NCBI GenBank assembly: GCA_001776635.1
Contig: MFCP01000004.1
Location: forward strand, 1,124-48,299
Source: Candidatus Daviesbacteria bacterium RIFCSPHIGHO2_01_FULL_40_11
GTDB lineage: Bacteria; Patescibacteriota; Microgenomatia; Daviesbacterales; UBA10151
Length of the DNA: 47,176 nucleotides
Reading direction: 5' to 3'
A program made the position numbers and the translations under genes. Shown here piece after piece: positions 8,078 through 23,008 of the stretch. Under the pieces are notes generated by a model that was not told where the DNA came from, made no database searches, and worked only from the letters and a program-made list of their open reading frames with translations. Each line of letters opens with the position of its first letter. Position 1 is the first letter of the stretch.

Positions 8078-8776
8078 TTATTCGAATGGATTAGATTTAC
8101 CCCTTGGTAGCGATTGTGTAGCTGAAGGACTTGAAACTGTTTCTTCTAACCTCGCAAGTTTCGCAATTAATTGCTCATCTTTTTGGCTAAGCTCGGGCAA
8201 AGGAGAATCTACACCTCCAAAGCTTTGAGGCAGTTGGGAATATAAAACTTCTGCCGCCAAAGCTACATCAAGAGCTTGAGAGGTTTGGCTAGATGAAATA
8301 TCAATACTACTTATTCTCATCAAACGGCGTGAGCTTTCTAAATTATTGATAAGAGTTCGAAAACTACTCTTGGCTCCTCTAATCTCTAAGTTAACCTTAA
8401 AGCTATCCGAATCACCTAATTTAGAAGCGGTACTGCCGAAGGAAATTGAATTGATGCTAAATCCGGATCGGGCAGCCAATTGCTGCAATAATCCCAAAGC
8501 ATTTACAAAGTCTTTATCTGCGGGAAGAGTCGCTAAGGCAAACCCAACTTTACGAGACAAATCTTTTTCGTCATAGCTTTCTAAAGCAGCAACCTTAGTT
8601 TCTAAAAATCTCGATTTATTCATTAAATCACCAATTGCTCTCTGATTATTTATTAATTTAAGCGTCTGAGGATAAATCACAAATATGATTAAAAAAAGAC
8701 TTGATAGTGCGACGATTACCGGAAAGATATACAATCTATGGTTCGAATAAAATTTAATCAAGTTTTCTTTCTTCAT
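8078..8776 (-). CDS. type IV pilus assembly protein PilO-like
   Basis: 232 aa. N-terminal TM segment followed by a coiled-coil. It lies immediately downstream of pilN and overlaps it by 4 nt. The call is made by position and topology rather than by strong motifs. Confidence 0.55.
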   Translation of the reverse strand: MKKENLIKFYSNHRLYIFPVIVALSSLFLIIFVIYPQTLKLINNQRAIGDLMNKSRFLETKVAALESYDEKDLSRKVGFALATLPADKDFVNALGLLQQLAARSGFSINSISFGSTASKLGDSDSFKVNLEIRGAKSSFRTLINNLESSRRLMRISSIDISSSQTSQALDVALAAEVLYSQLPQSFGGVDSPLPELSQKDEQLIAKLARLEETVSSPSATQSLPRGKSNPFE

Positions 8777-9318
8777 AGACGTTTAATTATGAAACTAATT
8801 CTGTAGAATCCATCTTTACCTCTGTTAAGACTCTCCAATGAAACTCGAATATTATTTCCCTCATTATTCTCTTTCACAGTGAAACCGCTCACCAGATTAT
8901 CTAGAGTGGCGGCATCAGGCACCATAGCCAGCAATACTGCTTCGTCTGATTTGTTAATAGTAATTGTATTTACTACAACAGATGGAGGTATTAATTTCTC
9001 AATCAACTTATATGTTGACGATTGCTGTGACGATACTTCCAAATATTTGTCAATTACCGTTAGTCTATTTTTTAAAAGGAACAAAGAGGCTTGAGTGCTT
9101 TTTAGATCCGAAACCCTCTGTTCTGTTTGAGTTAGCTTTGCTTGAACCTCTGTAATATTGCGACTTTGTAGGATTCTGAGAGCCACAGTTAAAGAAGCTA
9201 AAAAGATCATAGTTAAAATAATTGCTATCCCGACAAATTGAATTTTGTAAAATTTCGTCTTTTTTAACTCTTTGTTTATAATCTCAGGTGGAAGTAAATT
9301 GATCGAAATTTTAGCCAT
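8773..9318 (-). CDS. pilN: type IV pilus assembly protein PilN-like
   Basis: 181 aa. Starts with the PilN-type N-terminus INLLPPEI, then one TM segment and a periplasmic-type domain. It directly follows pilM. Confidence 0.65.
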   Translation of the reverse strand: MAKISINLLPPEIINKELKKTKFYKIQFVGIAIILTMIFLASLTVALRILQSRNITEVQAKLTQTEQRVSDLKSTQASLFLLKNRLTVIDKYLEVSSQQSSTYKLIEKLIPPSVVVNTITINKSDEAVLLAMVPDAATLDNLVSGFTVKENNEGNNIRVSLESLNRGKDGFYRISFIIKRL

Positions 9319-9321
9319 AAT

Positions 9322-10359
9322 TTAGTCCTCCCTTAAAGCCAATCCTACTGCAACGGAATATGAAGGAGCATCTTGTGTGAGTTTTGAAATTTCGCTCTTT
9401 TCTCTAACAATAGAATACCAAGGATCAGCTTCTTGAACCTCCAGTCCTAAAACATTCGCTAGATAGATCACGAGTCCTGGCATCTTTGCTCCGCCACCCG
9501 AAACAACAACTCTCTTTATGGAATCTGCCGGATATTTTGTCCCAAAGGATTGAATAATTCTTTTGCCCTCACCCGCTATAATATCTACTACCGACTTTAA
9601 AGCCTCGAATACCTTTCCTTCTAGCTGATCCTCCATTAACCCATAAATCCTTTTGTACTGCTCTGCTTGGTTAATTTCAAAATTAAAATGTTGCGCTAAG
9701 GATCTGGTGAGAGCCATACCGCCGGTTGAGATCGAACGGGTAAGCCATATTAATCCTTTAGACACAGTCGCGAAATCTGTAGTTGTGGCACCAAGTTGCA
9801 TAATCAGAGTACTAGGAGAAAAAGGGTTATTACCAACCAAAGATCTTGTAACAGCTATTATCTCTGTTTCTAAAACTCTTGGGCGAAGTCCCACCAGATC
9901 TAATACCTTTACATATTTTGCAACTACGTTCTTCGGAGAGGCAATCACCAACACCACTGTTTTGGTATTCTTCCCTTGACTCCCAGATCTTACCAAAACT
10001 TGCCAATTTAAATTAACGTCGCTTAAGGACATCGGGATAAATTCTTCTGCGGCATAATGGATTGTAGAAGAAAGTTCATTATCATTAAGGTATGGTAAAT
10101 CATCAATAACTCTGGTAAAAACCTTTGATTCAGGCAGTGCCACAACTACTTCTTTTTGGTCAATCTTTGCTGCTTGCAAAAGCTGCTTTATGGCATTTGC
10201 CAAAGCCTCTAGGTCAGAATCATTATCAGATATTATCCCGGGTTGCGGAGAGGCAATTGTGCCTAATGATATAAGTTTAAATTGCTCTTTGTCTTTCAAC
10301 AGCGATACTACTTTAATAGAAGAAAAACCTATATCTAAACCAACAGTAACTTTTGCCAT
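9322..10359 (-). CDS. pilM: type IV pilus assembly ATPase-fold protein PilM
   Basis: 345 aa with an actin/FtsA-like fold. Starts VGLDIGFSSIKVV; later TTDFATV and VVSGGGAKMPGL. Confidence 0.85.
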   Translation of the reverse strand: MAKVTVGLDIGFSSIKVVSLLKDKEQFKLISLGTIASPQPGIISDNDSDLEALANAIKQLLQAAKIDQKEVVVALPESKVFTRVIDDLPYLNDNELSSTIHYAAEEFIPMSLSDVNLNWQVLVRSGSQGKNTKTVVLVIASPKNVVAKYVKVLDLVGLRPRVLETEIIAVTRSLVGNNPFSPSTLIMQLGATTTDFATVSKGLIWLTRSISTGGMALTRSLAQHFNFEINQAEQYKRIYGLMEDQLEGKVFEALKSVVDIIAGEGKRIIQSFGTKYPADSIKRVVVSGGGAKMPGLVIYLANVLGLEVQEADPWYSIVREKSEISKLTQDAPSYSVAVGLALRED

Positions 10360-10369
10360 ATGAGCAGGG

Positions 10370-10397
10370 GCTAGTCACTAGGGTCTAGAAGACTAGC
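10370..10397 (-). promoter_or_regulatory. hairpin in the intergenic region upstream of pilM
   Basis: gctagtc (10370-10376) pairs with gactagc (10391-10397). An inner ctag/ctag 4-bp stem has the loop ggt. There is no U-tract, so this is not a classical terminator. Confidence 0.35.
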
Positions 10398-10419
10398 ACT
10401 AAAATCATTTTAGAACAAA

Positions 10420-10446
10420 CTATACCCTAAACGCTATACCCTAAAC
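10420..10446. repeat. 13-nt tandem direct repeat just after the stop of the giant pilus protein gene
   Basis: ctataccctaaac occurs at 10420-10432 and again at 10434-10446, separated by one base. Confidence 0.8.
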
Positions 10447-10447
10447 C

Positions 10448-12241
10448 CTACTTTACCTGGTATGTTCCTCTCACCAGAGAATAAGTACCAGATGGACCCG
10501 ATGAAAACAGCGTGCTGGATAAACCAGTTTCATAGTTTATAGTACTGTTATTTATTAACTTGATGCCCCAAGCCGTCAGCTCCTTGTAAGTATTATTATT
10601 GCCGGGTTCAACAATCCCTTTTGAAGCATAATAGACCCCGTTGTTGCCGGTATTATTAATCACTATGGCAGATATACCGCCATTAGCCATGGAATCATAA
10701 GTCGAAAGTACCATCAGTAAGCTGCTGCCTAACCCGGTCCCTTGCAATCTGTTGTTTGAACCGAGTGTGACAGTACCATCCACGACTACTACGCCGGAGG
10801 TAGTACCGTAAATAGGATCCAGCTCGAGAATATTATTACTGTTTAGAATGAGATTGCCGGTTATCCATATAGGGCTTTTAATAACCACACTACAATTACT
10901 GTTAAAAGTTACGTTGCCCACAATCTTTATCGGACCCAAAGTTGAAACACAACTGGTAATATCACCTACTGTGGTTGTTTCTGGTTTATCAACCTGATTT
11001 TTCCAATCCGCCACATTGGCATCCGAGATGGGGAAAACTTTGGGTGGAGGATCGGCAGAGCCCGGTTGGGAGACCCCCCCCACAGTAGAGTTGGAGATGG
11101 TTTGATAATAAGCATCTTGGCCAATAGCAAGGCTACTGATAGTATTGGCATGGACACTGCCACCGACTACAAAATTATTGCCTCCTGTGATTGAAGTGAT
11201 ACCTCCACCCATGATCGTCTTAAAGCTTAAGTCGCCGTTTACAGAGTTCCAAGTCGGATTACCAGTATTCCAATTAGGAGACCAGGCCGGGCTTCCTCTA
11301 GTATAGGTTTGGGCCAAATCATTTTGCCAAACCCAGAAGTTTCCTGAATCAGCAGACGTATCAACCAAAATCCAGTAGGTGGTATTTTCGATTATGTTTG
11401 GTAAAGTATTGAAGGTGATATCAACAAAGCCAAAACCGGGCGGATTTGCCGTCACCAGGCTACTATAGAGTATTCCTGTAGCCAGAACACTATTTTTGGC
11501 CGGTTTTCCATTATCATCTGCCGTGATACGGACAGTAATGTCCGGCGGGTTGCCTACTTTGTATAATTTTAAAGAGACCTTATTCAAAGACCCGGTAGAA
11601 GTAGGCTGAAAACTTTGGGCCACGTCCAGTTGCGAGTTGCCGTTTACTACTTTGCCAAAAATAAAATCCTGGCAATTGCTGTCTGTACAATCTGTTTCTT
11701 GATCTGGCGAACCTGCCGGCCCGCCGGCCACCCAGACATCACCGGTAATATTATTCTCATTACCGCCCGAGATACTGCCGTTAGAATAGACTGACCCGGT
11801 GATAACATTACTATTGCCCAACTCCAAACCGCCCTCTCCCACTTGGATTCCGTAAACAAAAGAGGTTCCGATCCCTCTTGAGGCGGTAATTTTGACTACT
11901 CTTTTTACCTTTGGGTTGGACTTGTTGGGAATATAACCGGTGGATTGGATCAGTTTATCTCCGGCATCTTGTGAGGTAATTGTGACAGAGTAAGATCCGT
12001 TCCCAAAACTAGTCTCTGCTTCGCCGTTGTAACTACCACCGGTTTTGTTCAAAGAAGCTAGCGCCTTATCAACTCCGGCTTCAGCAATAGCTGTCGCTTT
12101 CTCGGCATCTGCGGAATATGAAGCATTCTGAAAGTAGATTTGCGCCCCACCAATAATAAATAGTACGGTAAAAAGTGCCACACCCAGGGCAATAAAAACC
12201 AGGATCAGAATTTGTCCACCTTCTTTAGTCTTTATTCTCAT
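10448..12241 (-). CDS. large PilX_N-type pseudopilin-like protein, candidate pilus tip/cap protein
   Basis: Start set at the ATG at 12241, just after the stop of the upstream gene. The N-terminus MRIKTKEGGQILILVFIALGV has no Glu5 and is followed by AIAEAGVDKAL (PilX_N-like). It carries short Gly/Asn-rich repeats (GNSNVITGSVYSNGSISGGNENNITGDVWVAGG, and a later IVGNVTFNSNCSVVIKSPIWITGNLILNSNN), possibly beta-solenoid. Confidence 0.5.
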   Translation of the reverse strand: MRIKTKEGGQILILVFIALGVALFTVLFIIGGAQIYFQNASYSADAEKATAIAEAGVDKALASLNKTGGSYNGEAETSFGNGSYSVTITSQDAGDKLIQSTGYIPNKSNPKVKRVVKITASRGIGTSFVYGIQVGEGGLELGNSNVITGSVYSNGSISGGNENNITGDVWVAGGPAGSPDQETDCTDSNCQDFIFGKVVNGNSQLDVAQSFQPTSTGSLNKVSLKLYKVGNPPDITVRITADDNGKPAKNSVLATGILYSSLVTANPPGFGFVDITFNTLPNIIENTTYWILVDTSADSGNFWVWQNDLAQTYTRGSPAWSPNWNTGNPTWNSVNGDLSFKTIMGGGITSITGGNNFVVGGSVHANTISSLAIGQDAYYQTISNSTVGGVSQPGSADPPPKVFPISDANVADWKNQVDKPETTTVGDITSCVSTLGPIKIVGNVTFNSNCSVVIKSPIWITGNLILNSNNILELDPIYGTTSGVVVVDGTVTLGSNNRLQGTGLGSSLLMVLSTYDSMANGGISAIVINNTGNNGVYYASKGIVEPGNNNTYKELTAWGIKLINNSTINYETGLSSTLFSSGPSGTYSLVRGTYQVK

Positions 12242-12242
12242 G

Positions 12243-12815
12243 TTAGTTGTTCCTAAGGTTTGCCTCTGATGTGCTGATTTGTGTTTCATAATTGACACCT
12301 ATTTTCTGTTTTAGGGTTAGAGTGATTCTAACCTTGGTTGCATCTTCTGGCGCAACTTCAGAAGGGGGAGCAGCGGAATTAAAATACTTGAAAATTAAAT
12401 CGTCTAAAGATGTAGAGAAAATTTGATCTTTAGTTTGCCGAGAACTTCCAGGATCTGGAAAGATTTTAAAACGGAGTAAATTTTGGTCCTTTAAGAAAAC
12501 GAAATAATCAAAGGTATTACTGATAATATTGCCTGAAGAATCTATCGATGAAACCTTCAAAACAAGTTGATTGGTACCCGTGGTATAAGTAGATCCGCCA
12601 GAGGTATACTGAGTAGCCACCGCGCTTGCTTGCTTTAAACTACTTCGGACTTGCGACAATGCATCGTTAATATTTAAACCCTGTTGTACCTTTGAAGATT
12701 GATTCGTAAATAGTCCGGCACTATTTACCATAATCACAACTAACAAAACTCCAACCACCATTGCTATCCCCATGGCCACCAGAACTTCTATTAAAGTCAA
12801 TCCTTTTACCCTCAT
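12243..12815 (-). CDS. minor pilin (PilW/GspJ-like) with prepilin-type N-terminus
   Basis: N-terminus MRVKG|LTLIEVLVAMGIAMVV (class III signal, Glu5). At 190 aa, its size and position resemble a GspJ-type subunit. Confidence 0.6.
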   Translation of the reverse strand: MRVKGLTLIEVLVAMGIAMVVGVLLVVIMVNSAGLFTNQSSKVQQGLNINDALSQVRSSLKQASAVATQYTSGGSTYTTGTNQLVLKVSSIDSSGNIISNTFDYFVFLKDQNLLRFKIFPDPGSSRQTKDQIFSTSLDDLIFKYFNSAAPPSEVAPEDATKVRITLTLKQKIGVNYETQISTSEANLRNN

Positions 12816-13207
12816 TGATTAATCCCTCCCTCTCCAATCATGGTTTTTAAGGTAATCGTTTGAAGCTTATTATTGTTTTGCCAATTAACAGTCACCATAA
12901 CTTGCTTAATATTTTCTCCCTGGGTACAAATAGACGGATCGCAATCGGTAACTTCCACTGTTCCGCTACCCTCTGGCAGTAAACTTAAACGTGTGTCAGA
13001 GATCGGGGAACTGTCATTTACGAGATTGCTATAATTTATTGTCCTTTTATCCTCAATTTGCTTTACAGCTATTTCTCTTGCCAAGGAGACGTGTCTACTC
13101 TTAGCAATCAGCATCATGGCATTGGGAAGACCGGCAATTAAAAACACCACTGAACCTATTATTACAACGATCAATAAGGATTCAATGAGAGAAACACCCT
13201 TTTCCAT
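12812..13207 (-). CDS. minor pilin (PilV/GspI-like) with prepilin-type N-terminus
   Basis: N-terminus MEKG|VSLIESLLIVVIIGSVVF. 131 aa, small GspI-like size. Confidence 0.6.
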   Translation of the reverse strand: MEKGVSLIESLLIVVIIGSVVFLIAGLPNAMMLIAKSRHVSLAREIAVKQIEDKRTINYSNLVNDSSPISDTRLSLLPEGSGTVEVTDCDPSICTQGENIKQVMVTVNWQNNNKLQTITLKTMIGEGGINQ

Positions 13208-14071
13208 TTATTTATTAATTTCATTTTCAGAAAAGATGGCATAATCAAGATATGAGGGGACTACCTTATAAACCCTTTGTACCTTAATCATTCTCTGGGT
13301 ATTGCCAGAAGTACCGGTAGAATAAAAAGTACTAGATTGAACGGGTAAAGAACCCGAGGTAGGCCTGACCGCAATAGACTGGTTATCGCTGTTATACAGC
13401 AGCCTGGCGCGGAGCAACATTAGGTTGTTTTGAAGCGGACCATTATTGCTGCAGGTCCCTGACCTGGTCTGACAAGTGCCATCCCCTAATCGTTTATAGC
13501 ACTGGTACCGATTGCCACCGGGCGGTCCCTGCGGTCCCGAACAACTGGTGCTAATATCAAAATTGTTATCCGGATTCCTGTTAGCCGAGATATTATCAAG
13601 ATACCATTTTCTGGTTTTGTACTCATTACTCTCGTAGTAAACCAGTGTCAGCTCCAAGGCTGCTCTATTTGTAGCGCCGGGACTGCCCCAGTACACATCC
13701 AATGTTGTGCCGCTATAAACTTGTGCCGGTGGGTTGGTCGGAGAATTCAGGTCTGCCAGCCAGACCTGGGCCACTTCTTCCTTGTACAAAGACTCCAGTT
13801 CCAAAGCTTTCCCGGGTTGAGGTTTATCAATTTTGATCACCTCTGAAATCTCAGCACTGTTTCCCAAATCAAACTGCCCAACGCTACTATTAATACTTAA
13901 AGCCTTCTCTATCCCTGCCTCTGCAGCAGAAAAAGCCCGGCTTGACTCTTCCACTTCGGTAGATGTCGAAACATCCACTAGAGAACGTTGAACTACCGAT
14001 ATACCAATCGCTAAAGCCACAGTCATTACCAAAATTAATATTAAAATAATCTGACCTTGTTGGTTTCTCAT
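13208..14071 (-). CDS. PilX_N-type pseudopilin-like protein
   Basis: N-terminus MRNQQGQIILILILVMTVALAIG has no Glu5 and is followed by FSAAEAGIEKAL (PilX_N-like). The C-terminal half is Cys-rich. Confidence 0.5.
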   Translation of the reverse strand: MRNQQGQIILILILVMTVALAIGISVVQRSLVDVSTSTEVEESSRAFSAAEAGIEKALSINSSVGQFDLGNSAEISEVIKIDKPQPGKALELESLYKEEVAQVWLADLNSPTNPPAQVYSGTTLDVYWGSPGATNRAALELTLVYYESNEYKTRKWYLDNISANRNPDNNFDISTSCSGPQGPPGGNRYQCYKRLGDGTCQTRSGTCSNNGPLQNNLMLLRARLLYNSDNQSIAVRPTSGSLPVQSSTFYSTGTSGNTQRMIKVQRVYKVVPSYLDYAIFSENEINK

Positions 14072-14092: not shown

Positions 14093-14701
14093 TTATCTCA
14101 GCTGTACTGTCGTCTGAAAAACTACCGGATCTATCTGACTTGTACTCACCGGTGGCAGTCCAACCGCGGCACCCAGTTCAAAATTTACTGTCACGGCTGC
14201 TTTATAACCTGGAGGTTGACTAACGCTGAAAGAACCACTACTCACGGAAACTCCTAATTGGGTATTGGTATCAGTTGAAACTTGTGCTGCAGACATCAGA
14301 TTAGTCGGATTACATAGCTGGGGTGTAACTTCTGTTGCTTGGAGTGTTAGATTTTCCCAAATAATACAACCATTTTTGCCTGTGCCTATGCAAGATGAAG
14401 GCGCGCTGCCAGTGCTGTCAGTTGGAAGAACAATCCTGTAGCGGGTGTAGATGCCGTTTTGTATAATCACCAGAGTGTTACTCGAACCGGAAGTCGGACA
14501 GACTACATTATCTGCGCCCCTAATAGTTTTATCCATATTTTCCAAAACAGCCTGTCCGTTTTGCTTGATAATCGCAAGTATTTGCGATTTATTGCTGCCC
14601 CGCAGGGTATTGGTGAAAATCGCGACCATTATGGTTCCTATAATGGCAGTTATGCCAATCACCACCAGAATCTCAACTAAAGTAAAGCCTCTATTCATCA
14701 T
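14093..14701 (-). CDS. type IV pilin-like protein (minor pilin candidate, FimU/GspH-like position)
   Basis: N-terminus MMNRG|FTLVEILVVIGITAIIG. Confidence 0.7.
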   Translation of the reverse strand: MMNRGFTLVEILVVIGITAIIGTIMVAIFTNTLRGSNKSQILAIIKQNGQAVLENMDKTIRGADNVVCPTSGSSNTLVIIQNGIYTRYRIVLPTDSTGSAPSSCIGTGKNGCIIWENLTLQATEVTPQLCNPTNLMSAAQVSTDTNTQLGVSVSSGSFSVSQPPGYKAAVTVNFELGAAVGLPPVSTSQIDPVVFQTTVQLR

Positions 14702-14705: not shown

Positions 14706-15287
14706 TCATAGCTTCCTCAGTATAGTAATCAACCTGGATTCATGAGAACCTGCAAAATCAGTCCAAGTAACAATAACTGTCACCTTTTTTTGAGTAGTGT
14801 AGTCTGCTGCAGTATCAGATAAGATAACCACCCGTCTAAAGTTGGGCGGTATCTGTTCGGCAAGTGTAGGAATAGATGATCCATTTCCCAAATTATTAAG
14901 CACCCCTATATTTGTAACGTCTCCTTTACTTATAACGTTAAAATAGCAGTTAGGATTAAGCTGGTTACTACAAGTACTATCTATTTGGTAACACCAGATA
15001 GAATCAGATTTCGCATCGGACCCAGAACAAGTACTGCTACTGCTACCATCCCATGACGTAGGATCTCCTCCAAGCCCGGTAATAGCCCGATTCCTGTCTC
15101 TCCCTGTCCTAACGCTTTCTACTCCTTCTTGAGCCAATTTTGTAGCTTGGGCCGAAGTCTTAGCAAAATTAGCATTCCTGAGAGAAAAAATGGTGGTAAA
15201 AGTCAAAGCCGAAACTACAAAGATCCCTACAACACTAGCTACAATTACCTCTACTAAACTTTGTCCGCTCTCTAATTTATTGCGCAT
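14706..15287 (-). CDS. type IV pilin-like protein
   Basis: N-terminus MRNKLESG|QSLVEVIVASVVG. Start set at the ATG at 15287, which is preceded by AAGGAGGGAG about 8 nt upstream. The track start at 15311 is less well supported. Confidence 0.6.
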   Translation of the reverse strand: MRNKLESGQSLVEVIVASVVGIFVVSALTFTTIFSLRNANFAKTSAQATKLAQEGVESVRTGRDRNRAITGLGGDPTSWDGSSSSTCSGSDAKSDSIWCYQIDSTCSNQLNPNCYFNVISKGDVTNIGVLNNLGNGSSIPTLAEQIPPNFRRVVILSDTAADYTTQKKVTVIVTWTDFAGSHESRLITILRKL

Positions 15288-15780
15288 AAATTCTCCCTCC
15301 TTGCTCAACAATTACTTGCTTTGTGTTACTTGTTTTGGAATTTAGCAGCGTAATGATTATCGAACTTGAACCGCAAGATGATACCATTGTGCCATAAAGT
15401 GGTGCGAAAGTAACTGTGGTACCAAAAGGACAATTAGAAATTCCTGTGGTAATACCACTAATAGAAATATCTGCCGGAAGCGATAATTTTTTTAAGGAGC
15501 TCGTTATACCGGATGAATTTTGGCATTCCAAATCCAGCTCTGTGGCATTTGTGAATACCACAATCCAACCAAGAGTATCCTGGCTCTGACATTTTAAACC
15601 TGAAGTCGAATTAGATTGGGCTAAGCGCAAAAAGCTTTGTACGTCAAGGGCAGCATTTTTAAAGTTCTGGTCTTCTCCAAAAGATTTATAATTTGCCAGT
15701 GTAAAGACTCCTACAATAGCCATAACGGCCATAACTACCAGCAGCTCAACAAGAGTAAAACCATGGGCAGATTTCAGCAT
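15277..15780 (-). CDS. type IV pilin-like protein
   Basis: N-terminus MLKSAHG|FTLVELLVVMAVMAIVG. Start set at the ATG at 15780; the longer track ORF would run through the upstream intergenic promoter-like repeats. Confidence 0.7.
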   Translation of the reverse strand: MLKSAHGFTLVELLVVMAVMAIVGVFTLANYKSFGEDQNFKNAALDVQSFLRLAQSNSTSGLKCQSQDTLGWIVVFTNATELDLECQNSSGITSSLKKLSLPADISISGITTGISNCPFGTTVTFAPLYGTMVSSCGSSSIIITLLNSKTSNTKQVIVEQGGRIYAQ

Positions 15781-15823: not shown

Positions 15824-16273
15824 TTATGGTGGAGTAAACTCGAGATTATAAGTAGAAACAGAGCCACAGCTATAAGAACCATTAGGCTGACTTTCTAACT
15901 TGGCATAGAGTTTATAACTGGTGCATTTATTTGTAGAAGAATTATCACAGGGATTATTTGGCAACGCTAGATAACAATAGTTAGGCGAAGATTGGGGGTC
16001 GCTGGGAATAGTATTAAGATAAGTTCTTCCACCGGCAGATAGCGCCCCACCGTTAAATGTAATTGCCGACGGGTAATCGAATTGGTCTGCAAAGTATTGC
16101 TCCAAGGCTGATTGGATGGACCGCAAGTCCGATTGCCTTTTTGAATCTCGTCCCTGTTTTAAAACACTAGAATAAATAACCAGTCCGATTAGGGAAAGTA
16201 CGGCAATAATACTAATTGTTATAAGAAGCTCTATTAAAGTAAAACCACTGCGGCAACGGGACATCAGTTTCAT
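15824..16273 (-). CDS. type IV pilin (PulG/PilA-like)
   Basis: N-terminus MKLMSRCRSG|FTLIELLITISIIAVLSLIG, followed by a GRDSKRQSDL helix, as in T2SS-G/T4 pilins. Confidence 0.75.
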   Translation of the reverse strand: MKLMSRCRSGFTLIELLITISIIAVLSLIGLVIYSSVLKQGRDSKRQSDLRSIQSALEQYFADQFDYPSAITFNGGALSAGGRTYLNTIPSDPQSSPNYCYLALPNNPCDNSSTNKCTSYKLYAKLESQPNGSYSCGSVSTYNLEFTPP

Positions 16274-16279: not shown

Positions 16280-16744
16280 TTATTGCTGGCTAGAGACACA
16301 ATAGATATTATCAGGGTTAGTACCAATTTCCAGTAATGCACAAACCTGGAAATTTGTTGGACTATTATCGGGTTGCCCGCTAGAAATTGCGTAAAAGGTA
16401 TCCGGGCACTGCGTATTATCCCAGACAGTAGGCTTTGGAATAGTGTTATTTGTTGCAAGAATACAATATTGAGGCGTACGATCAGAAGAATCAGTTGGCA
16501 CTACACCACCTGCAAATTGAGTCTTAGCTAATGGTTGATAAGCAGTTGCTCCCTTATTAACCTCCAACACCCTTGAAATAGCATCAATATCACCTCTCCT
16601 TTTACTATCACGGGCTTTGGATTGAACACTATTATACATTCCAACAGCCACCAGAGATAAAATCCCAATGATAGTAATTACTATCATCAGTTCAATCAGG
16701 GTAAAACCACGGGGATCTTTAAAAGTGGGCAGGAATTTTTTCAT
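16280..16744 (-). CDS. type IV pilin (paralog of the 16868-17395 pilin)
   Basis: N-terminus MKKFLPTFKDPRG|FTLIELMIVITIIGILS and a C-terminal Cys pair (VCALLE...YCV). Start set at the ATG at 16744, because the track start lies inside a TTGACA/AATAAT promoter. Confidence 0.75.
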   Translation of the reverse strand: MKKFLPTFKDPRGFTLIELMIVITIIGILSLVAVGMYNSVQSKARDSKRRGDIDAISRVLEVNKGATAYQPLAKTQFAGGVVPTDSSDRTPQYCILATNNTIPKPTVWDNTQCPDTFYAISSGQPDNSPTNFQVCALLEIGTNPDNIYCVSSQQ

Positions 16745-16765
16745 TAAATTTTGTTTACTGTTTTT

Positions 16766-16795
16766 ATTATTTGCATACCTTAAACGAACTGTCAA
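16766..16795 (-). promoter_or_regulatory. sigma-70-like promoter for the pilin gene starting at 16744
   Basis: On the minus strand, TTGACA-18 nt-AATAAT. The block tatgcaaataataa is shared with the 17416-17445 promoter. Confidence 0.55.
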
Positions 16796-16867: not shown

Positions 16868-17395
16868 TTATTGTATAAGGTTGCTCTTGCAGAATACTGT
16901 GTTACTTCTCTCAAGTGTTGCACAAACTTTCCAGCCTCTAATACTAGCGCTATCTGTTATATCATTACCTGCACCAAGCACACCGTTAATAGTTGTCCCA
17001 GTAATAGATGCCCAGCCACCAATAGGACAAGCGGGTCCAGTCCAAGGAGTAGGATTGCCAGTAGGGCCAGAAAATGCGCTAGAGGATGTACTTCCTATCT
17101 GACAATACACCTTACTACTGACTGGATCAGATAGACCGGGGACAGGATAATCTGTATTAAATCGTGCCTGTGGATAATAATAGTATCCTGTCTGGGGATC
17201 CCTAGTTGATTCAATATTCTTGGCTAAGGCATCAATTTCAGCCACTCTTCTGGCATCTCTGGCAGAACCTTGAGCTCCAGAGAAAATACCCAGCACAACA
17301 ACTGCCAAAATTCCAATAATGGCTATTACTATCATTAGCTCAATCAGGGTAAAACCGGAAGTACTTTTAGAAGAATTGGGCAGGAATTTTTGCAT
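16868..17395 (-). CDS. type IV pilin (paralog of the 16280-16744 pilin)
   Basis: N-terminus MQKFLPNSSKSTSG|FTLIELMIVIAIIGILA and a C-terminal Cys pair (VCATLE...FCK). Confidence 0.75.
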   Translation of the reverse strand: MQKFLPNSSKSTSGFTLIELMIVIAIIGILAVVVLGIFSGAQGSARDARRVAEIDALAKNIESTRDPQTGYYYYPQARFNTDYPVPGLSDPVSSKVYCQIGSTSSSAFSGPTGNPTPWTGPACPIGGWASITGTTINGVLGAGNDITDSASIRGWKVCATLERSNTVFCKSNLIQ

Positions 17396-17415
17396 AGATT
17401 TTTATTAACTGACTT

Positions 17416-17445
17416 ATTATTTGCATAAACAAACATAGTTGTCAA
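17416..17445 (-). promoter_or_regulatory. sigma-70-like promoter for the pilin gene starting at 17395
   Basis: On the minus strand, TTGACA-18 nt-AATAAT, with the same architecture as the 16766-16795 promoter. Confidence 0.55.
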
Positions 17446-18397: not shown

Positions 18398-18940
18398 TTA
18401 ATATGTACAGCTACCACCCGATGCAGCAATCAGAGTTAAATCAGAACCGACTTCGTAAAGAGTGTCCTCATTACCACCATCCGCTCCTGCCTTACCTGAC
18501 TCCTTCTGAGATTCCAAAGCAGTGTTGATTTCCCAACCGCTACCATCAGAACAATAAGTATAATGGTTCACCACAGTATTGAGTTGATCAACGGGCAAGG
18601 TCGGAACTGACACACTCTTCTGAGCGGACAGATTAACTTTCACCCAACCTGTTCCGTCTGAATTTCTGGTACCAGTGTTACTCGATCCAGGACATGGTAC
18701 TGTACCACCCTCACAGAGAATGGTAGCCGCAGAACCGGTTGCTTCTTGAACTGCCACATTAATTGCTTGTTGTAAGTTAGCAAGATCAGACAACCTAGCC
18801 GCATCACGGCCTCTACGGGTAAGCTCCAACGGATTAATAATCAAAACAACGACTGCTGCCAAAATGGCAATAATTGCTATAACTACCAAAAGTTCAACCA
18901 AAGTAAATCCTTTGGTCAAAACTTGAGCAGATTTTTTCAA
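18398..18940 (-). CDS. type IV pilin, candidate major pilin
   Basis: TTG start preceded by the strong SD GGGGGTGA 6 nt upstream. N-terminus MKKSAQVLTKG|FTLVELLVVIAIIAILAAV. It lies between pilC and pilD and has its own promoter-like element. Confidence 0.75.
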   Translation of the reverse strand: MKKSAQVLTKGFTLVELLVVIAIIAILAAVVVLIINPLELTRRGRDAARLSDLANLQQAINVAVQEATGSAATILCEGGTVPCPGSSNTGTRNSDGTGWVKVNLSAQKSVSVPTLPVDQLNTVVNHYTYCSDGSGWEINTALESQKESGKAGADGGNEDTLYEVGSDLTLIAASGGSCTY

Positions 18941-18963
18941 AATTTCTCACCCCCTTCTTTCCT

Positions 18964-18994
18964 ATTGTATTCACAGAGATACATATTTAGTCAA
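18964..18994 (-). promoter_or_regulatory. candidate promoter for the pilin gene starting at 18940
   Basis: On the minus strand, TTGACT-19 nt-TACAAT. The predicted short UTR contains the GGGGGTGA SD. Confidence 0.4.
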
Positions 18995-19005
18995 GAGGGT
19001 GTTAT

Positions 19006-20205
19006 TTAAAAAGATGTGGTTAGTTTGTATATCGGCAGAATAATTGAGAGTACCAAAAATGCTACTCCAATGCCTAAGATAATTAGAATTATCGGTTCAA
19101 TAGCTACTGTCAAATTCTTGATCATATGATCTGACTCCGACTCAAAATAATCGGCAAGTTTTAAAAATATCTCGTCTACCTTACCTGTTTCTTCACCCAC
19201 TCTGATCATTTGACTGACGATTTTCGGAAAAACATTAGCAGTAAGAAGGGTTGAAAACGGCAGGCCTTTTTCAACACCATTGTAGGCATCCTTGAGTGCA
19301 TTTTTAAACACCGGATTATTTGTCAAGTCCGAAACTATACTTATTGATGTAAGCAAGGGAATGCCAGCGGAAGTTAAAAGTCCAAAAGTGCGGTTGAAAT
19401 TGGTTAAAGTTATATTGGCAGCAAGTTTTCCCACAATTGGGGTTTTTAAAATCAGTTTGCCAAAGAAAAGATTGCCTTCAGGTGTACGCTTCCATCTGTT
19501 GATACCCACAAAGCTACCAACCAAAACGATCAGTCCCAACCACCAGAAGTTTACGAATAGATTGGATACAGCGATTAGTATTCTGGTGGGAAGTGGAAGT
19601 TGTATTGTTGACTGGGTATACAAAGTTACGAGCTTTGGGATAACGAAAACCATCATTATGATGATAACAGCGATCATCATTGTTACAACAACAATCGGAT
19701 AGATCAGTGCCCCTCTAATTTTTGCTTTGAATTCCCTCTCTTTTTCCAATCCATCAGCCATTTGCAAAAGAACCGAATCAAGTTTACCAGAAGCTTCACC
19801 GGCTTTAACTAAATTAACATAAAGATGGGGGAAAATATTCGGGTATTTACTTAAAGCTTGCGCCAGCGTTAAACCCCCTTTTATATTCTGGGAAATTTCA
19901 ACCAAAGCCCGCTTCAGAATTTTATTAGTTTGTTGCTCCTCTAAGATATCTATTGCTTCCGATAGAACTAACCCGCTACTTACCATTGTTGCCAACTGTC
20001 TTGTAATAATAACCAACTCCGAGAAGCTGACTCTGTTTAAGAAACGCTCTAAAAGCATGTTTGCAGGAGGATTTTTGGTACTTAAAGAAACAACAATTAA
20101 ACCTTTCTTTCGTATAACTGTGGCGGCCGAATGAGTATCAGGAGCTTGAACGCTACCGGCATGATCGACACCTTGTAAATCCTTAGCTTTGTAGTTGAAT
20201 TCCAT
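19006..20205 (-). CDS. pilC: type IV pilus platform protein PilC (T2SS-F family)
   Basis: Two T2SS-F repeats and three TM regions. The N-terminus MEFNYKAKDLQG is typical of PilC. The ATG at 20205 is preferred over the TTG at 20223. Confidence 0.9.
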   Translation of the reverse strand: MEFNYKAKDLQGVDHAGSVQAPDTHSAATVIRKKGLIVVSLSTKNPPANMLLERFLNRVSFSELVIITRQLATMVSSGLVLSEAIDILEEQQTNKILKRALVEISQNIKGGLTLAQALSKYPNIFPHLYVNLVKAGEASGKLDSVLLQMADGLEKEREFKAKIRGALIYPIVVVTMMIAVIIIMMVFVIPKLVTLYTQSTIQLPLPTRILIAVSNLFVNFWWLGLIVLVGSFVGINRWKRTPEGNLFFGKLILKTPIVGKLAANITLTNFNRTFGLLTSAGIPLLTSISIVSDLTNNPVFKNALKDAYNGVEKGLPFSTLLTANVFPKIVSQMIRVGEETGKVDEIFLKLADYFESESDHMIKNLTVAIEPIILIILGIGVAFLVLSIILPIYKLTTSF

Positions 20206-20229
20206 AATTACCAAAAACTCCAATCTGAA

Positions 20230-21282
20230 CTATTTAAGCAACTTAAGTAATAGCTCAGGCCTTAGTGCGAACCTTAGTGCAACGTCTTGAGAAATTTTTC
20301 CCGCCTTTACCAAATTGACAAGAGAACGCTCAAGAGGTTGCATCCCGAGTTCTGCTGATGTTTCAATTGTATTATCTATTAAATATGACTTGCCTTCCCG
20401 AATAATATTTCGGACAGCGGGTGTAACAAACATAACCTCACTTGCCAGTGTTCTTCCTGGTTGAATTGTCGGTATTAATCGAAGTGACAGAATTACTTCC
20501 AAAGTTGCTGCCAGTTGAAGTCTTATTTGAGGCTGCTGTAGTTCAGGAAAAACATCAATGATCCTGTCTACGGATTGCGCGGCCGAGTTGGTGTGTAGAG
20601 TTGCAAACACCAAGTGGCCAGTTTCCGCAATAGTCATAGCTGATGCAATAGTCTCTAGATCTCTCATCTCACCGATCAAAACTACATCCGGATCTTCCCG
20701 TAAGGCCGAGCGCAACGCATTACTCCAAGACCTAGTATCAGAATACATTTCCCTCTGTTCGATTAAAGATCTACCTGGTGGATATACATATTCTATAGGA
20801 TCCTCGACAGTAATGATATGGGACGCTCGGATTTGATTAATCTTGTTTATAAACGATGCTAAAGTTGTAGATTTACCATGACCGGTTGGCCCTGCAACCA
20901 AGATAAAACCTTGCTTCAGATCTACCAGTTTATTTACAACCGGTGGAAAACCCAATTCTTCCATGATTGGGATACGATAAGGAATAAGTCTTAAAGCTAC
21001 GGCAGGGTAGCCTTTTTGTCTAAATAAATTAACTCTAAACCTGGCTCTCTTTTCAAATTCAAAAGAAAAATCAAGTTCAAAGACCTGTTTATAGATATTT
21101 GATTGAAGATCTGTAAGAAGAGGCCTAATCAAACTCTCGATTTGCTCGGGAGAAGTAGGTGTCTCGCCAGGTACAGTTATAAGTTCGCCATGAATTCGGA
21201 GGGTGGGTGGAAAACCCACCGATAAGTGTAAATCCGAAGCATTTCTTTGAATAGTTAGGTCTAAAAGTTGTTGGATATTCAT
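20230..21282 (-). CDS. pilT: type IV pilus retraction ATPase PilT
   Basis: 350 aa. Walker A GPTGHGKSTT, Asp box, His box (TLHTNSA), and PilT-type AVRNIIREGK and GMQPLERSL. Confidence 0.9.
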   Translation of the reverse strand: MNIQQLLDLTIQRNASDLHLSVGFPPTLRIHGELITVPGETPTSPEQIESLIRPLLTDLQSNIYKQVFELDFSFEFEKRARFRVNLFRQKGYPAVALRLIPYRIPIMEELGFPPVVNKLVDLKQGFILVAGPTGHGKSTTLASFINKINQIRASHIITVEDPIEYVYPPGRSLIEQREMYSDTRSWSNALRSALREDPDVVLIGEMRDLETIASAMTIAETGHLVFATLHTNSAAQSVDRIIDVFPELQQPQIRLQLAATLEVILSLRLIPTIQPGRTLASEVMFVTPAVRNIIREGKSYLIDNTIETSAELGMQPLERSLVNLVKAGKISQDVALRFALRPELLLKLLK

Positions 21283-21289
21283 ATTCCAT

Positions 21290-23008
21290 CTAGTCTTGCG
21301 CTACCCGCAGTACTTCCTCCATAGTAGTTATTCCCTCTAAAACCTTTAAGTATCCATCCTGCTTCATAGTAACCATACCGGATGTAATAGCTAGTTGCTC
21401 GATGGCACCGGAGGAGGCATGTTCCAGTATTAATTTGGCGATTTGTTCTGAAATAGGAAACACTTCAAAAATACCAATCCTCCCCAAATAACCGGTATTT
21501 GCACAATAAGAACATCCTTTTCCTTTGAAAAGTCTTAAAGAAGCATAAGCAGAAACGGGCAAAAACTTTCCCAAAACCGATTTGATATTTTCAATTACTT
21601 CCGCAGGAGCTCTAAATTCCACTTTGCAATTGGGACAAATTTTACGTACAACCCTTTGTCCGACAACAGCATTTAAAGCAGAAGTAAGCAAAAATGGCTC
21701 AACTCCCATATCTAAAAGCCTGGGCGGGGCGCCGGCGGCGGAGTTTGTGTGGACTGTGGAAAAAACTTGATGTCCGGTCAAAGCGGCCTGAATTGCCAAA
21801 TCAGCAGTTTCAGTATCTCTCACCTCTCCAACCATTATTATATTGGGGTCTTGACGCAAGAAACTTCTAAGAGCCGAAGCGAAAGTTAGACCGACCTGAG
21901 TGTTGACTTGAACTTGATTAACTCCAGGAATCTGATATTCAACAGGATCCTCGATTGTAACTATATTAACCTTTGTGGTAGAAATTTTAGTGAGTATTGA
22001 ATAGAGAGTTGTAGTTTTTCCGCTGCCTGTTGGACCGCATATCAGGATAATTCCATGAGGCCGCGACAACTGGCTCTCCAAAATCTTTAAAGAACTACCT
22101 CTAAATCCCAATTCCAAAAAGGACGGCGCCCCCACTGATTTAGGCAACAGCCTCATTACGACCTTTTCTCCAAAGATAGTAGGCACAGTGGAGATACGCA
22201 GATCCACTATATTTTGTCGGAAGGTAAAAGTAAATCTGCCATCCTGAGGTAGTCTCTTCTCATCGATCTTTAAGACTGAAAGAATTTTAATTCTTGACAC
22301 AAGAGCATCGTGTACTCCTTTTGGGAGAAGAATTTTTTCCTGTAAGATCCCATCGATCCTATATCGTACTCTGGTTCTATCTTCCTGAGGCTCAATATGA
22401 ATATCGGATGCCCTGCTCTTTATGGCGTATTCTAAAAGTTGGTCTATGATATTGGAAACAGGAGCCTCGCGTAAAATTTCCGGTCCGGCTTGACCCTCTT
22501 CCGCCGGTTTAACAGCTGCAACTTCTTTTAAAGCTGATGTTACTTCCGAAGTTAAATTTTGAGCGTATTGATCGGAGATGGCTTTCAAGATATCCTCGGC
22601 TTGCGCCAGAAACGGCTTGACCCTCAAACCTGCCCTTTTTTCGATAAACTGGCTGATTTGAATATCCAAAGGATCTGCCATTGCTACCCAGAGTTCATCT
22701 CCCTTTTTCTCAAATGGAATTATTCGGTAACGGCGGGCTGCCGCCTCTGGGACTAAATTTAAGATATCTGCCGCGATGGCTTTTCCCTCAAGCTTGATAT
22801 AGGGAACATTTAAAGTCCATGCTTTAGCTTGAGTTATTTTATCAATCGGTACCAGATTGTATTGAAGAAGAATTTTCTCAACCGGTTGTCCGGAGTTAAT
22901 ACTTTCCAATTTGATGGCGGAGAGTTGATCTGAGCTTAAATACCCCTCTTTAAAAAGGATGTCTTCCAAAGAAGAATCTTGTGGGATTTGGGCAAGATTA
23001 ATGGGCAT
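21290..23008 (-). CDS. pilB: type IV pilus assembly ATPase PilB (GspE family)
   Basis: 572 aa. N-terminal T2SSE_N-type domain, Walker A GPTGSGKTTT, and tetracysteine CPNC...CSYC. Confidence 0.9.
   Translation of the reverse strand: MPINLAQIPQDSSLEDILFKEGYLSSDQLSAIKLESINSGQPVEKILLQYNLVPIDKITQAKAWTLNVPYIKLEGKAIAADILNLVPEAAARRYRIIPFEKKGDELWVAMADPLDIQISQFIEKRAGLRVKPFLAQAEDILKAISDQYAQNLTSEVTSALKEVAAVKPAEEGQAGPEILREAPVSNIIDQLLEYAIKSRASDIHIEPQEDRTRVRYRIDGILQEKILLPKGVHDALVSRIKILSVLKIDEKRLPQDGRFTFTFRQNIVDLRISTVPTIFGEKVVMRLLPKSVGAPSFLELGFRGSSLKILESQLSRPHGIILICGPTGSGKTTTLYSILTKISTTKVNIVTIEDPVEYQIPGVNQVQVNTQVGLTFASALRSFLRQDPNIIMVGEVRDTETADLAIQAALTGHQVFSTVHTNSAAGAPPRLLDMGVEPFLLTSALNAVVGQRVVRKICPNCKVEFRAPAEVIENIKSVLGKFLPVSAYASLRLFKGKGCSYCANTGYLGRIGIFEVFPISEQIAKLILEHASSGAIEQLAITSGMVTMKQDGYLKVLEGITTMEEVLRVAQD

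Follow-up and report, generated by a model that had tools for sequence, protein, structure and literature searches.

A pilin-rich, secretin-less type IV pilus locus of Candidatus Daviesbacteria with a probable tandem arrangement of minor-pilin triads

Introduction

Secretin-less type IV pilus (T4P) loci of CPR bacteria have already been published (PMC6744442, PMC11623550). T4P-1 of TM7x (Nanosynbacter lyticus, Saccharibacteria) encodes PilB, PilT, PilC, PilD, PilM, PilN and PilO with several pilins, and the same genome also carries a second machinery locus without PilT (PMC11623550). Genetic work in Saccharibacteria has shown that pili used in host binding and twitching are produced from homologous loci (PMC11623550), and that the essentiality of T4P genes does not depend on comEC (PMC10187176). 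Between CPR phyla, pilin sequences are not detectably conserved (PMC11623550). In a CPR-wide protein-family census (Meheust et al., 2019; PMC6744442), PilB, PilT, PilC, PilN, PilO and pilins were likewise co-localised, PilQ was absent and ComEC and DprA were present; a non-Gram-negative envelope, cell-cell interaction and DNA uptake were deduced, and minor-pilin organisation and Daviesbacteria-wide synteny were outside its scope. Monoderm T4aP (Clostridia, Streptococcus sanguinis) also have PilB, PilT, PilC, PilD and PilMNO and no secretin. Core minor-pilin sets are FimU-PilV-PilW-PilX in the T4aP of Pseudomonas and GspH-I-J-K in the T2SS.

The locus described here lies on contig MFCP01000004.1 of Candidatus Daviesbacteria, an ultra-small bacterium from groundwater, in a window (the whole stretch of DNA analysed) of 47,176 nucleotides. 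It is an ordinary CPR example, unusually pilin-rich and neatly organised. It is very probably the main T4aP operon of a Patescibacteria/CPR cell without an outer membrane, operating by the mechanism set out below.

Results and discussion

Locus layout and conservation

Eighteen co-directional, densely packed ORFs occupy the minus strand from 8078 to 23008 (Table 1), as a sequence-only reading of the window had described. Their 14.9 kb make up 32% of the window, close to the third first estimated, and 1.5% of the genome, which at 964 kb (95% complete) is indeed reduced. From 23008 the order is PilB, PilT, PilC, a pilin, PilD, six pilins, a PilX_N-type protein (13208), two small pilins, a 597-aa PilX_N-like modular protein, PilM, PilN and PilO. 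Intergenic gaps were -11 to +21 nt, with five exceptions (65 nt before pilA, 81 before 16868, 123 before 16280, 43 before 15277 and 88 before PilM); the first 4 nt of 12243, which has a strong Shine-Dalgarno sequence (SD), are also the last 4 of 12812. This close spacing, together with translational coupling, supports an operon of 18 genes. The coordinates first assigned were those of the longest ORFs, and the true starts of four genes are likely to be 16744 (16280), 15780 (15277), 15287 (14706) and 12241 (10448).

Table 1. Features of the pilus locus, in window coordinates.
Feature	Coordinates	Strand	Basis
PilB, extension ATPase, 572 aa	21290..23008	-	T2SSE 5e-132, MshEN 6.8e-19
PilT, retraction ATPase, 350 aa	20230..21282	-	TIGR01420 (PilT/PilU family), 430.8 bits, cut-off 319.1
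PilC, platform protein, 405 aa	19006..20223	-	T2SSF, two stretches, 6.7e-62
Promoter-like element TTGACT-17-TACAAT and strong SD, upstream of pilA	18941..19005	-	Sequence reading
pilA, candidate major pilin, 180 aa, G/FTLVE, 4 Cys	18398..18940	-	N_methyl 30.4 bits, above cut-off
PilD, prepilin peptidase/methyltransferase, 306 aa	17477..18397	-	A24_N_bact 1.7e-26, Peptidase_A24 1.4e-11
Pilin 16868, 175 aa, G/FTLIE	16868..17445	-	N_methyl 33.3 bits
Pilin 16280, likely start 16744, G/FTLIE	16280..16795	-	N_methyl 37.2 bits
Pilin 15824, 149 aa, G/FTLIE, pilA-like	15824..16273	-	N_methyl 32.2 bits
Pilin 15277, G/FTLVE, GspH/PpdA-like by weak matches	15277..15780	-	N_methyl 30.1 bits
Minor pilin 14706, G/QSLVE, triad 1 first member	14706..15287	-	N_methyl 14.6 bits, sub-threshold
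Minor pilin 14093, G/FTLVE, triad 1 second member	14093..14701	-	N_methyl 25 bits
X287, PilX_N-type minor pilin without Glu5, G/QIILI, triad 1 third member	13208..14071	-	PilX_N 17.9 bits, below cut-off 25.5
Minor pilin 12812, 131 aa, G/VSLIE, triad 2 first member	12812..13207	-	Conserved N-terminus in orthologues
Minor pilin 12243, 190 aa, G/LTLIE, no Cys, triad 2 second member	12243..12815	-	N_methyl 19.3 bits, sub-threshold
X616, 597-aa PilX_N-like modular protein, GG/QILIL, no Glu5, triad 2 third member	10448..12241	-	Candidate tip adhesin
PilM, 345 aa	9322..10359	-	PilM_2 2e-52; TIGR01175 191 bits, cut-off 133
PilN-like, 181 aa	8773..9318	-	N-terminal motif, one TM segment, place between PilM and PilO
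PilO, 232 aa	8078..8776	-	PilO PF04350 24.2 bits, cut-off 22

The locus is bordered by housekeeping genes, with TrmD/S16 at one end and HolB/GyrB at the other. The whole block and its flanks were syntenic in about 22 Daviesbacteria species at protein identities of 33-90%, a pattern that points to purifying selection on each gene. Variation was confined to how many pilA-like genes follow PilD, from 2 to at least 7 by species, in an interval spanning 0.85-9.5 kb.

Machinery, secretin and second locus

By sequence, the secretin-less machine is complete (PilB, PilT, PilC, PilD, PilM, PilN-like, PilO). The PilB translation shows a Walker A and a tetra-Cys motif and matched TIGR02538 at 3.7e-172, yet its 573.9 bits are below the equivalog cut-off of 675.65. 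PilT, on which the proposal of a retractile fibre was based, is a genuine PilT-family ATPase by TIGR01420 and the sole PilT of the genome. The PilN-like protein gave no Pfam match; its N-terminal I-x-L-L-P motif is invariant over 17 orthologues, with a single TM segment after it, and the top PDB match of its profile was Myxococcus PilN (3jc8), collinear over 4-137 and weak (E = 0.044).

No PF00263 (secretin) match was found anywhere in the 964-kb genome, nor in the 61 family genomes searched (this one and 60 others; 53 high quality, some single-contig). The reported lack of PilQ thus extends to genome and family, and with housekeeping flanks no secretin lies just outside the locus. The PilP search was uninformative because its control found the PilP family nowhere. 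The search of the rest of the genome for comEC, comEA and dprA that had been proposed returned ComEA and ComEC, adjacent on contig C35, and DprA on C40, all outside the pilus locus. A second PilB/PilC/pilin locus, beyond the view of the sequence-only reading, lies on contig C8. The genome thus has two type IV filament loci, and of these only the one at 8078-23008 carries a PilD; the C8 locus has neither PilT nor PilMNO and is more Com/T2SS-like in appearance.

Minor pilins

All 11 pilin-like proteins have a Gly-ended leader followed by 21 residues of mean hydropathy 2.0-3.1, with F (6), Q (3), V (1) or L (1) at +1. Nine carry Glu at +5, whereas 13208 and 10448 have Ile or Leu there. The class III-type N-termini attributed to these ORFs were in this way confirmed. 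N_methyl exceeded the Pfam cut-off in 18398, 16868, 16280, 15824, 15277 and 14093, fell below it in 12243 and 14706, and gave no match in 12812.

NCBIfam PRK10506 (2.3e-9, residues 3-108) matched pilin 15277, as did GspH (4e-7), each far under its cut-off. The minor pilins after it can, with moderate confidence from profile comparison, be read as two tandem paralogous triads, 14706-14093-13208 and 12812-12243-10448. Reciprocal best profile matches were obtained between 14706 and 12812 (also on the globular parts), between 14093 and 12243 (hhalign 6e-12 over 91 columns; about 1e-9 over 86-88 in a second comparison) and between X287 and X616, whose N-terminal 54-62 residues match X287 (hhalign 5e-9; about 5e-6 in a second comparison). 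The paralogy signal is mostly that of the N-terminal helix, globular-only values being 1e-4 for the first pair and 0.008-0.02 for the second, with none for the caps.

In 14706, the columns that do not vary across 21 orthologues include Gly8 and Glu13, and PilV TIGR02523 matched at E = 0.021; the same model matched 12243 at 2.4e-5, sub-threshold. Pilin 12812 had no Pfam or NCBIfam match; its Gly4, Ser6 and Glu9 are invariant across 20 orthologues, and N_methyl is found in 28% of the members of its Atlas cluster. PilX_N matched 16/20 X287 orthologues at E ≤ 0.01 (best 1.2e-5). The AF2 model of X287 (pLDDT 82) has a helix at 4-60 and a beta-sandwich, and look-alike clusters were found across CPR. 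The X616 model (pLDDT 78.5) has a helix at 9-67, a 4-stranded pilin-like sheet and then beta-rich modules; an NCBIfam choice-of-anchor R domain was assigned at aa 223-354 (30.2 bits, cut-off 30), and Foldseek gave partial, low-TM matches to a phage baseplate protein, CBMs, lectins and adhesins.

The sequence-only reading had seen here an unusual I-J-K-like run preceded by an extra PilX_N protein. The order and the extra protein stand. The GspI/PilV, GspJ/PilW and K labels had been given by size and order only, and the profiles did not bear them out: for GspI/J/K and PilV/W/X, every HMM match of a minor pilin was far below its cut-off and driven by the N-terminal helix. The arrangement is no isolated case, being conserved across Daviesbacteria, and is better read as the two triads. 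The models of X287 and X616 (helix and beta-sandwich) are unlike the GspK fold; Foldseek returned no GspK match, and an Atlas T2SSK cluster reached only TM 0.42 against them.

Small co-transcribed pilins followed by a larger Glu5-less subunit recall FimU-PilV-PilW-PilX and GspH-I-J-K, and the order 15277 (H-like), 14706, 14093, 13208 parallels H-I-J-K. In the locus, however, the I-J-K part occurs twice and PilY1 is absent. In TM7x T4P-1, the largest minor pilin, PilX1, has no predicted PilD signal and a beta-jelly-roll-like module, and can be likened to X616 and X287 (PMC11623550). Minor pilins with grafted adhesive modules and a predicted tip position are also known from monoderm bacteria, as modular pilins (PMC8179133). 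Five pilins are predicted in TM7x locus one against 11 here, and neither two tandem triads nor a variable pilA-like zone after PilD has been described for it (PMC11623550).

pilA and the variable zone

The major pilin is most likely pilA 18398: it has a conserved promoter-like site to itself, no ribosome-binding site of the locus is stronger, and it is as well conserved as the machinery. A search of RNA runs returned none containing this DNA. Its median identity is 72% (35-59% for the other pilins), its SD duplex (-13.2 kcal/mol) is the strongest of the locus, and the promoter-like boxes, SD and TTG start, read by eye, are repeated upstream of nearly all 23 orthologues. Pilin 16868 and its paralogue 16280 (hhalign 1e-44), the latter within the zone of species-variable copy number, are each preceded by the same promoter-like element (TTGACA-18-AATAAT, 11/12 positions matching), at 17416-17445 and 16766-16795 respectively. 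Such sites number 39 in the region, against 37.5 expected from shuffled sequence, and so are not enriched. In its globular part, 15824 is similar to pilA (hhalign about 1e-5, with a probability of 71-80%).

It is possible, if doubtful, that one machine makes two or more filaments, with pilA, 16868 and 16280 as alternative major pilins under separate promoters, the two triads priming different fibres, and surface specificity switched by phase or host. The separate promoter-like elements, the paralogous triads and the species-dependent pilA-like count and interval are in line with this, as are the two distinct pili made by TM7x (PMC11623550). However, the pili of TM7x use two machinery sets, and the second PilB/PilC locus here could do likewise; the promoter matches, moreover, are consensus matches only.

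Proposed mechanism and function

In the T4aP reading that we favour, prepilins would be cut by PilD after the leader Gly. Assembly would be primed on the PilC/PilMNO platform by tip complexes of the GspH-like 15277 and the two triads, each combining a small and a mid-size pilin with a PilX_N-type cap that lacks Glu5 and has beta-sandwich modules. The major pilin, most likely pilA, would be polymerised by PilB; 16868 and 16280, with promoter-like sites of their own, may be alternative or accessory subunits, and the fibre would be retracted by PilT. Binding surfaces are predicted on the cap proteins, above all X616, with its lectin/CBM-like sandwich and beta-helix-like C-terminal part. The pilus would most probably serve the cell to attach to, and move on, a putative host cell or a surface. 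A second, non-exclusive use, DNA capture feeding ComEA/ComEC, is possible, given the presence of ComEA-ComEC and DprA. For TM7x the function comes from genetics (PMC11623550), whereas here it is deduced, and attachment and/or DNA uptake repeats the published view for CPR bacteria.

That the pilus serves primarily in competence is unlikely. A minor pilin would then bind extracellular DNA and PilT retraction would pass it to ComEA/ComEC, for transformation or for nucleotide scavenging in a cell unable to make nucleotides. Besides the competence genes themselves, a sub-threshold ComP_DUS match of 15824 (21.2 bits, cut-off 27.3), Thermus ComZ at rank 33 among the weak structural matches of X616 and the T4P-competence link proposed for CPR (PMC6744442) point this way. 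In Southlakia epibionticum, however, comEC can be dispensed with but T4P genes cannot, which means that competence is not what makes the pilus essential (PMC10187176); eleven pilins with lectin/CBM-like modules exceed the needs of DNA capture, and the C8 locus could itself be a DNA-uptake system. A T2SS-like pseudopilus that pushes proteins through the wall, with no surface pilus, is highly improbable: PilB and PilC score nearly equally on GspE/GspF and PilB/PilC models and several pilins weakly match GspG/GspH, but every Gsp match is below cut-off, PilT and PilM/N/O are T4aP hallmarks and not T2SS parts, no secretin was found, and Pfam/NCBIfam scans of the 18 proteins gave no GspC/L/M family.

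Monoderm T4aP differ from the Daviesbacteria locus in gene order, and S. sanguinis PilB/PilC are unlike the modular proteins here, which have PilX_N-type N-termini without Glu5. The nearest non-CPR relatives of PilD found were in Clostridia MAGs, with PilB-PilT beside PilD, at an identity of only about 28%.

Locus layout and machinery

The window locus is a well-organised example of a secretin-less CPR type IV pilus (T4P) locus, and such loci have already been published. In CPR genomes, genes for PilB, PilT, PilC, PilN, PilO and pilins lie together, PilQ is missing, and ComEC and DprA are present; the authors of that survey made the same inferences on envelope and lifestyle (Meheust et al., 2019; PMC6744442). 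Only mildly new are the family-wide synteny, a copy-number-variable pilin zone after PilD, and what is probably a duplicated triad whose two PilX_N-type caps carry modules.

The genome, G000 (964 kb in 42 contigs, estimated completeness 95%), carries the locus on contig C4. The nearest relatives of its PilD are groundwater MAGs named Candidatus Daviesbacteria, and DNA of the locus was present in groundwater, soil and sediment metagenome DNA runs. Eighteen minus-strand ORFs fill the interval from 23008 down to 8078 and leave space for nothing further (pilin genes are named here by window coordinate). Intergenic gaps were −11 to +21 nt, the exceptions being those before pilA (65 nt), 16868 (81 nt), 16280 (123 nt), 15277 (43 nt) and PilM (88 nt). 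The flanking genes lie on the opposite strand and have housekeeping functions: TrmD and ribosomal protein S16 at one end of the locus, GyrB and a HolB-type DNA polymerase III subunit at the other. Chance was rejected as the origin of the ORF series, as all genes are conserved in ~22 species. The gene order and the count of eleven pilins given by the sequence-only reading were correct, as judged from direct reading of N-termini and from family matches; four ORFs probably start later than it listed (16744, 15780, 15287 and 12241).

Coordinates of the features discussed
Feature	Location	Strand	Basis or content
Type IV pilus locus	window 8078-23008	minus	18 genes
pilA	window 18398..18940	minus	TTG start codon at 18938-18940
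X287 gene	window 13208..14071	minus	287 aa, PilX_N-type
X616 gene	window 10448..12241	minus	597 aa
Read-depth spike	window 18584-19087		pilin N-terminal helix codons
Read-depth spike	window 21608-22111		PilB Walker region
Second type IV filament locus	G000 C8:31989-41701 (L044:1990-11702)	minus	domain content
ComEA and short ComEC	contig C35, L045:3026-4653
Extended pilin zone	L010:10903-20432
3.5-kb pilin zone	L015:12204-15756
3.5-kb pilin zone	L021:2632-6111
Long GyrB ORF	L019:1537-4785
Long GyrB ORF	L022:1346-4591
PilD in two ORF fragments	L028:6022-6902
HolB in two ORF fragments	L016:4082-4829

The type IVa extension ATPase, PilT, PilC and PilD of a secretin-less machinery were all found in the locus. 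PilB matched T2SSE (440.5 bits, 5e-132) plus the MshEN N-domain in Pfam, and scored 573.9 bits against the strict TIGR02538 equivalog model, under its cut-off of 675.65. PilT scored 430.8 bits against TIGR01420, above the cut-off of 319.1, PilC contained two T2SSF repeats (207.5 bits), and PilD matched A24_N_bact (92.6 bits) and Peptidase_A24 (45.2 bits). For the PilM-PilN-PilO alignment subcomplex, PilM matched PilM_2 (178.7 bits, 2e-52) and PilO scored 24.2 bits (cut-off 22). The ORF between them gave no Pfam match, even at E ≤ 10. Its short cytoplasmic N-terminus carries an I-x-L-L-P motif, unchanged across 17 orthologues, ahead of a single membrane span, and the top PDB match of its family profile was Myxococcus PilN (3jc8), collinear over residues 4-137 at a weak E of 0.044. 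From its position, topology and motif together with this match, the ORF was accepted as PilN-like.

Secretin, competence genes and a second filament locus

Searches with the secretin family PF00263 gave no match in G000 (95% complete) or in any of 61 family genomes, of which 53 are of high quality and some are closed, while six secretin-bearing control genomes all matched. These searches bore out the proposed absence of a PilQ secretin. An ordinary diderm T4aP was rejected, since no secretin was found across the family. A ComG pseudopilus was rejected on the presence of PilT and PilMNO, with the ComGA, ComGB and ComGC-GF models all below their cut-offs, and a type II secretion system on the presence of PilT and PilMNO. 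PilP gave no match in the whole-genome search, but the control genomes likewise gave none.

A search of the rest of the genome for competence genes located ComEA (203 aa) directly upstream of a short ComEC (339 aa) on contig C35, and DprA on contig C40. The short ComEC consists of the competence/ComEC_N-term domain only, with no metallo-beta-lactamase part. The observation made by the sequence-only reading is confirmed, and its interpretation, of a monoderm-type envelope, is supported; the role that it proposed for the pilus, in DNA uptake and/or attachment to a host cell, is a possible one.

Three T2SSE ATPases were found in G000, the third being a second PilB on contig C8. There, a PAS/HAMP histidine kinase and two receiver-only response regulators are followed by PilB2 (558 aa), PilC2 (358 aa), five pilin-like genes (146, 579, 190, 124 and 170 aa) and a LytR_C membrane protein (353 aa); PilT, PilD and PilMNO were not found in this C8 locus. 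A second PilB occurs in about half of the sampled family genomes. Given a C8 locus with PilB2 and without PilT, the window locus is predicted to be the principal type IV filament system of G000, and the sole retractile one, in a genome with more than one such system.

Conservation, the variable pilin zone and the likely major pilin

Relatives were recovered with PilD as central anchor and 10-kb flanks, which yielded ~22 loci from Daviesbacteria (L006-L028). They share the entire block in one and the same order: GyrB-HolB, PilB-PilT-PilC-pilA-PilD-pilins-15277-14706-14093-X287-12812-12243-X616-PilM-N-O, TrmD-S16. The sole structural variable was the stretch from PilD to 15277, where the number of G|FTL[IV]E pilin genes ranges from 2 to at least 7 (three in G000) and the length from 0.85 to 9.5 kb. 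The zone of locus L010 has at least 7 pilin genes across 9.5 kb, among them genes for proteins of 267 and 374 aa. That of L021, one of two loci with a 3.5-kb stretch, holds a 490-aa non-pilin ORF. The order PilB-PilT-PilC-pilin-PilD recurs in several CPR lineages outside the family, and in one Saccharibacteria-labelled locus relatives of 14706, 14093 and X287 directly follow PilD.

Median identity of orthologues to the G000 protein
Protein	Median identity
GyrB	84%
PilB	80%
PilT	77%
PilM	76%
PilC	75%
pilA	72%
PilD	64%
12812, 12243, X616	57-59%
15824, 14706, 14093, X287	45-51%
15277, 16280	35-36%

A promoter-like TTGACT-17-TACAAT lies upstream of pilA, followed by a Shine-Dalgarno sequence that exceeds all others of the locus in strength (−13.2 kcal/mol). 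The promoter-like boxes, strong Shine-Dalgarno and TTG start recur ahead of nearly all 23 pilA orthologues. Genes 16868 and 16280 are each preceded by TTGACA-18-AATAAT (11/12 match). Promoter-like sites were not enriched overall (39 found vs 37.5 in shuffles). A search for RNA runs with which to rank the pilins by expression found none that contains this DNA, returning runs of the same study or of related proteins. From its position, these signals (weak evidence) and its conservation, pilA is likely the major pilin.

Pilins and the two proposed triads

A class III signal is a short leader ending in Gly or Ala, followed by ~21 hydrophobic residues, usually with Glu5 (PMC8179133). Read directly from the translations, all eleven pilin-like proteins start with a hydrophilic leader whose last residue is Gly; the next 21 residues have a mean hydropathy of 2.0-3.1. 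Glu is found at +5 in nine of them; X287 and X616 read Gly|Gln, and their +5 residue is Ile or Leu. Six passed the Pfam N_methyl cut-off (18398, 16868, 16280, 15824, 15277 and 14093), 12243 and 14706 fell just below it, and 12812 had no Pfam match. Among outside family models, the best matches of 15277 were PpdA/GspH, far below cut-offs.

The eleven pilin families were compared all against all as profiles, in versions with the helix included and with the globular part only. pilA, 16868, 16280 and 15824 formed one group, in which 16868 and 16280 are clear paralogues (1e-44; globular part alone 1e-13) and pilA and 15824 share some globular similarity (~1e-5). Apart from 15277, the other six pilins fell into three reciprocal best pairs. 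The pair 14706 and 12812 matched in the globular part alone at ~1e-4 (probability 50-64%). The pair 14093 and 12243 matched at ~1e-9 to 6e-12 (globular part alone 0.008-0.02), and since the alignment spans 86-91 columns, the similarity extends past the N-terminal helix. X287 and X616 matched over the N-terminal 54-62 residues alone (5e-9 to 5e-6, hhalign). From these pairs and the H-like 15277, the region may be read as two paralogous triads in tandem, 14706-14093-X287 and 12812-12243-X616, with an H-like pilin ahead of them; this reading has moderate support, since the common helix contributes much of the signal. The two-triad reading would account for what had been described as an extra PilX_N protein before an I-J-K set. 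Of that description the gene order held, and membership in GspI/J/K or PilV/W/X was not supported, all models being below cut-off: in the family-model scan 12243 scored 24.8 bits against PilV (cut-off 52.2) and 14706 scored 15.3 bits, the gspI/gspJ models gave at most 17 bits, 12812 matched nothing, and the matches covered mainly the N-terminal helix. Profile searches of the PDB with the X287, X616, 12812 and 12243 families gave no significant match; for 12812, matches to pilins were confined to the N-terminal helix. The first candidate triad has relatives in other CPR classes; the second is more conserved within the family and occurs elsewhere in a short form without the middle sandwich.

Putative cap proteins X287 and X616

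Against PilX_N (PF14341), X287 scored 17.9 bits (cut-off 25.5), and 16 of its 20 orthologues matched at E ≤ 0.01 (best 1.2e-5); no member of the X616 family matched. The AF2 model of X287 (pLDDT 82) comprises a 57-residue helix and a beta-sandwich. ESM Atlas models from Woesebacteria, WWE3 and Collierbacteria matched it (TM 0.61-0.69), with a T2SSK cluster at only 0.42. A GspK fold appears unlikely for the two caps, and its assignment was rejected, as Foldseek against the PDB returned no GspK: X287 had no match at E ≤ 0.001 and X616 had partial matches only.

In the AF2 model of X616 (pLDDT 78.5), a 59-residue helix (9-67) and a four-stranded pilin-like sheet (77-122) are followed by beta modules up to residue 570, in the order short-strand repeats, sandwich and beta-helix-like C-terminal part. 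The sandwich coincides with an NCBIfam choice-of-anchor R match at residues 223-354. The partial Foldseek matches were a phage phi812 baseplate protein (7e-6), then carbohydrate-binding modules and lectin-like and yeast adhesin domains, with Thermus ComZ among weak matches. In modular type IV pilins, one or more folded modules are grafted onto a pilin module, which consists of the alpha-1 helix and a beta-sheet (Raynaud et al., PMC8179133). The fold layout and Foldseek matches of X616 suggest that it acts as a modular minor pilin like those in that catalogue. It resembles PilX1 of TM7x (Nanosynbacter lyticus), the largest pilin of its locus, which is without a predicted PilD signal and has a jelly-roll module (PMC11623550).

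Full-length relatives of X616 were found in ~10 of 120 genomes of the phylum, and shorter ones without the middle sandwich in several further families. Those in other Patescibacteria families (genomes G069, G097, G113, G122, G146, G161 and G168) have 390-450 aa. As the short relatives match profile positions ~3-175 and 350-585 only and so skip the middle, the middle beta-sandwich of X616 (the choice-of-anchor R region) is a lineage-specific insertion.

Relation to known pili

Genetic work in Saccharibacteria has shown that host binding and twitching are driven by two distinct T4P (PMC11623550), and that T4P genes are essential independently of comEC (PMC10187176). Among candidate host-contact organelles of CPR/Patescibacteria, type IV pili have the best support, and they are proven to be essential in cultivated Saccharibacteria. 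We know of no experimental work on Microgenomates such as Daviesbacteria, of no cultured member and of no host; the literature search returned no paper on Daviesbacteria pili specifically, and two papers that name both Daviesbacteria and pili in passing. The locus leaves the current picture of CPR biology unchanged. It provides a clean list of parts conserved across the family, with a likely major pilin, two conserved tip-protein candidates and a hypervariable pilin zone. Such a list could inform proteomics, the interpretation of cryo-ET data, the structure prediction of tip complexes, and binding screens of the antibody or lectin type that aim to identify a host. We think it unlikely, on present evidence, that Daviesbacteria pili bear two tip complexes from the duplicated triad, each with a Glu5-less PilX_N-type cap bearing a beta-sandwich or beta-helix binding module of its own, which with the variable pilA-like array would give alternative specificities on one retractile machine and act as a host-range determinant. 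If true, these specificities could be, for example, host glycan versus DNA.

Metagenome reads and variant ORFs

Four groundwater/soil metagenome runs mapped to the locus gave identical fragments at low depth. Depth spikes of 5- to 20-fold were seen in the four runs at two conserved segments, one in the pilin N-terminal helix codons and one in the PilB Walker region. Extra copies as their source were rejected: many loose ends point to segments common to other community members. The GyrB ORF has ~1080 aa in loci L019 and L022, vs 671 aa in G000, which suggests an intein or other large insertion. PilD in L028 and HolB in L016 are each present as two separate ORF fragments, which may reflect frameshifts, insertions or assembly errors.
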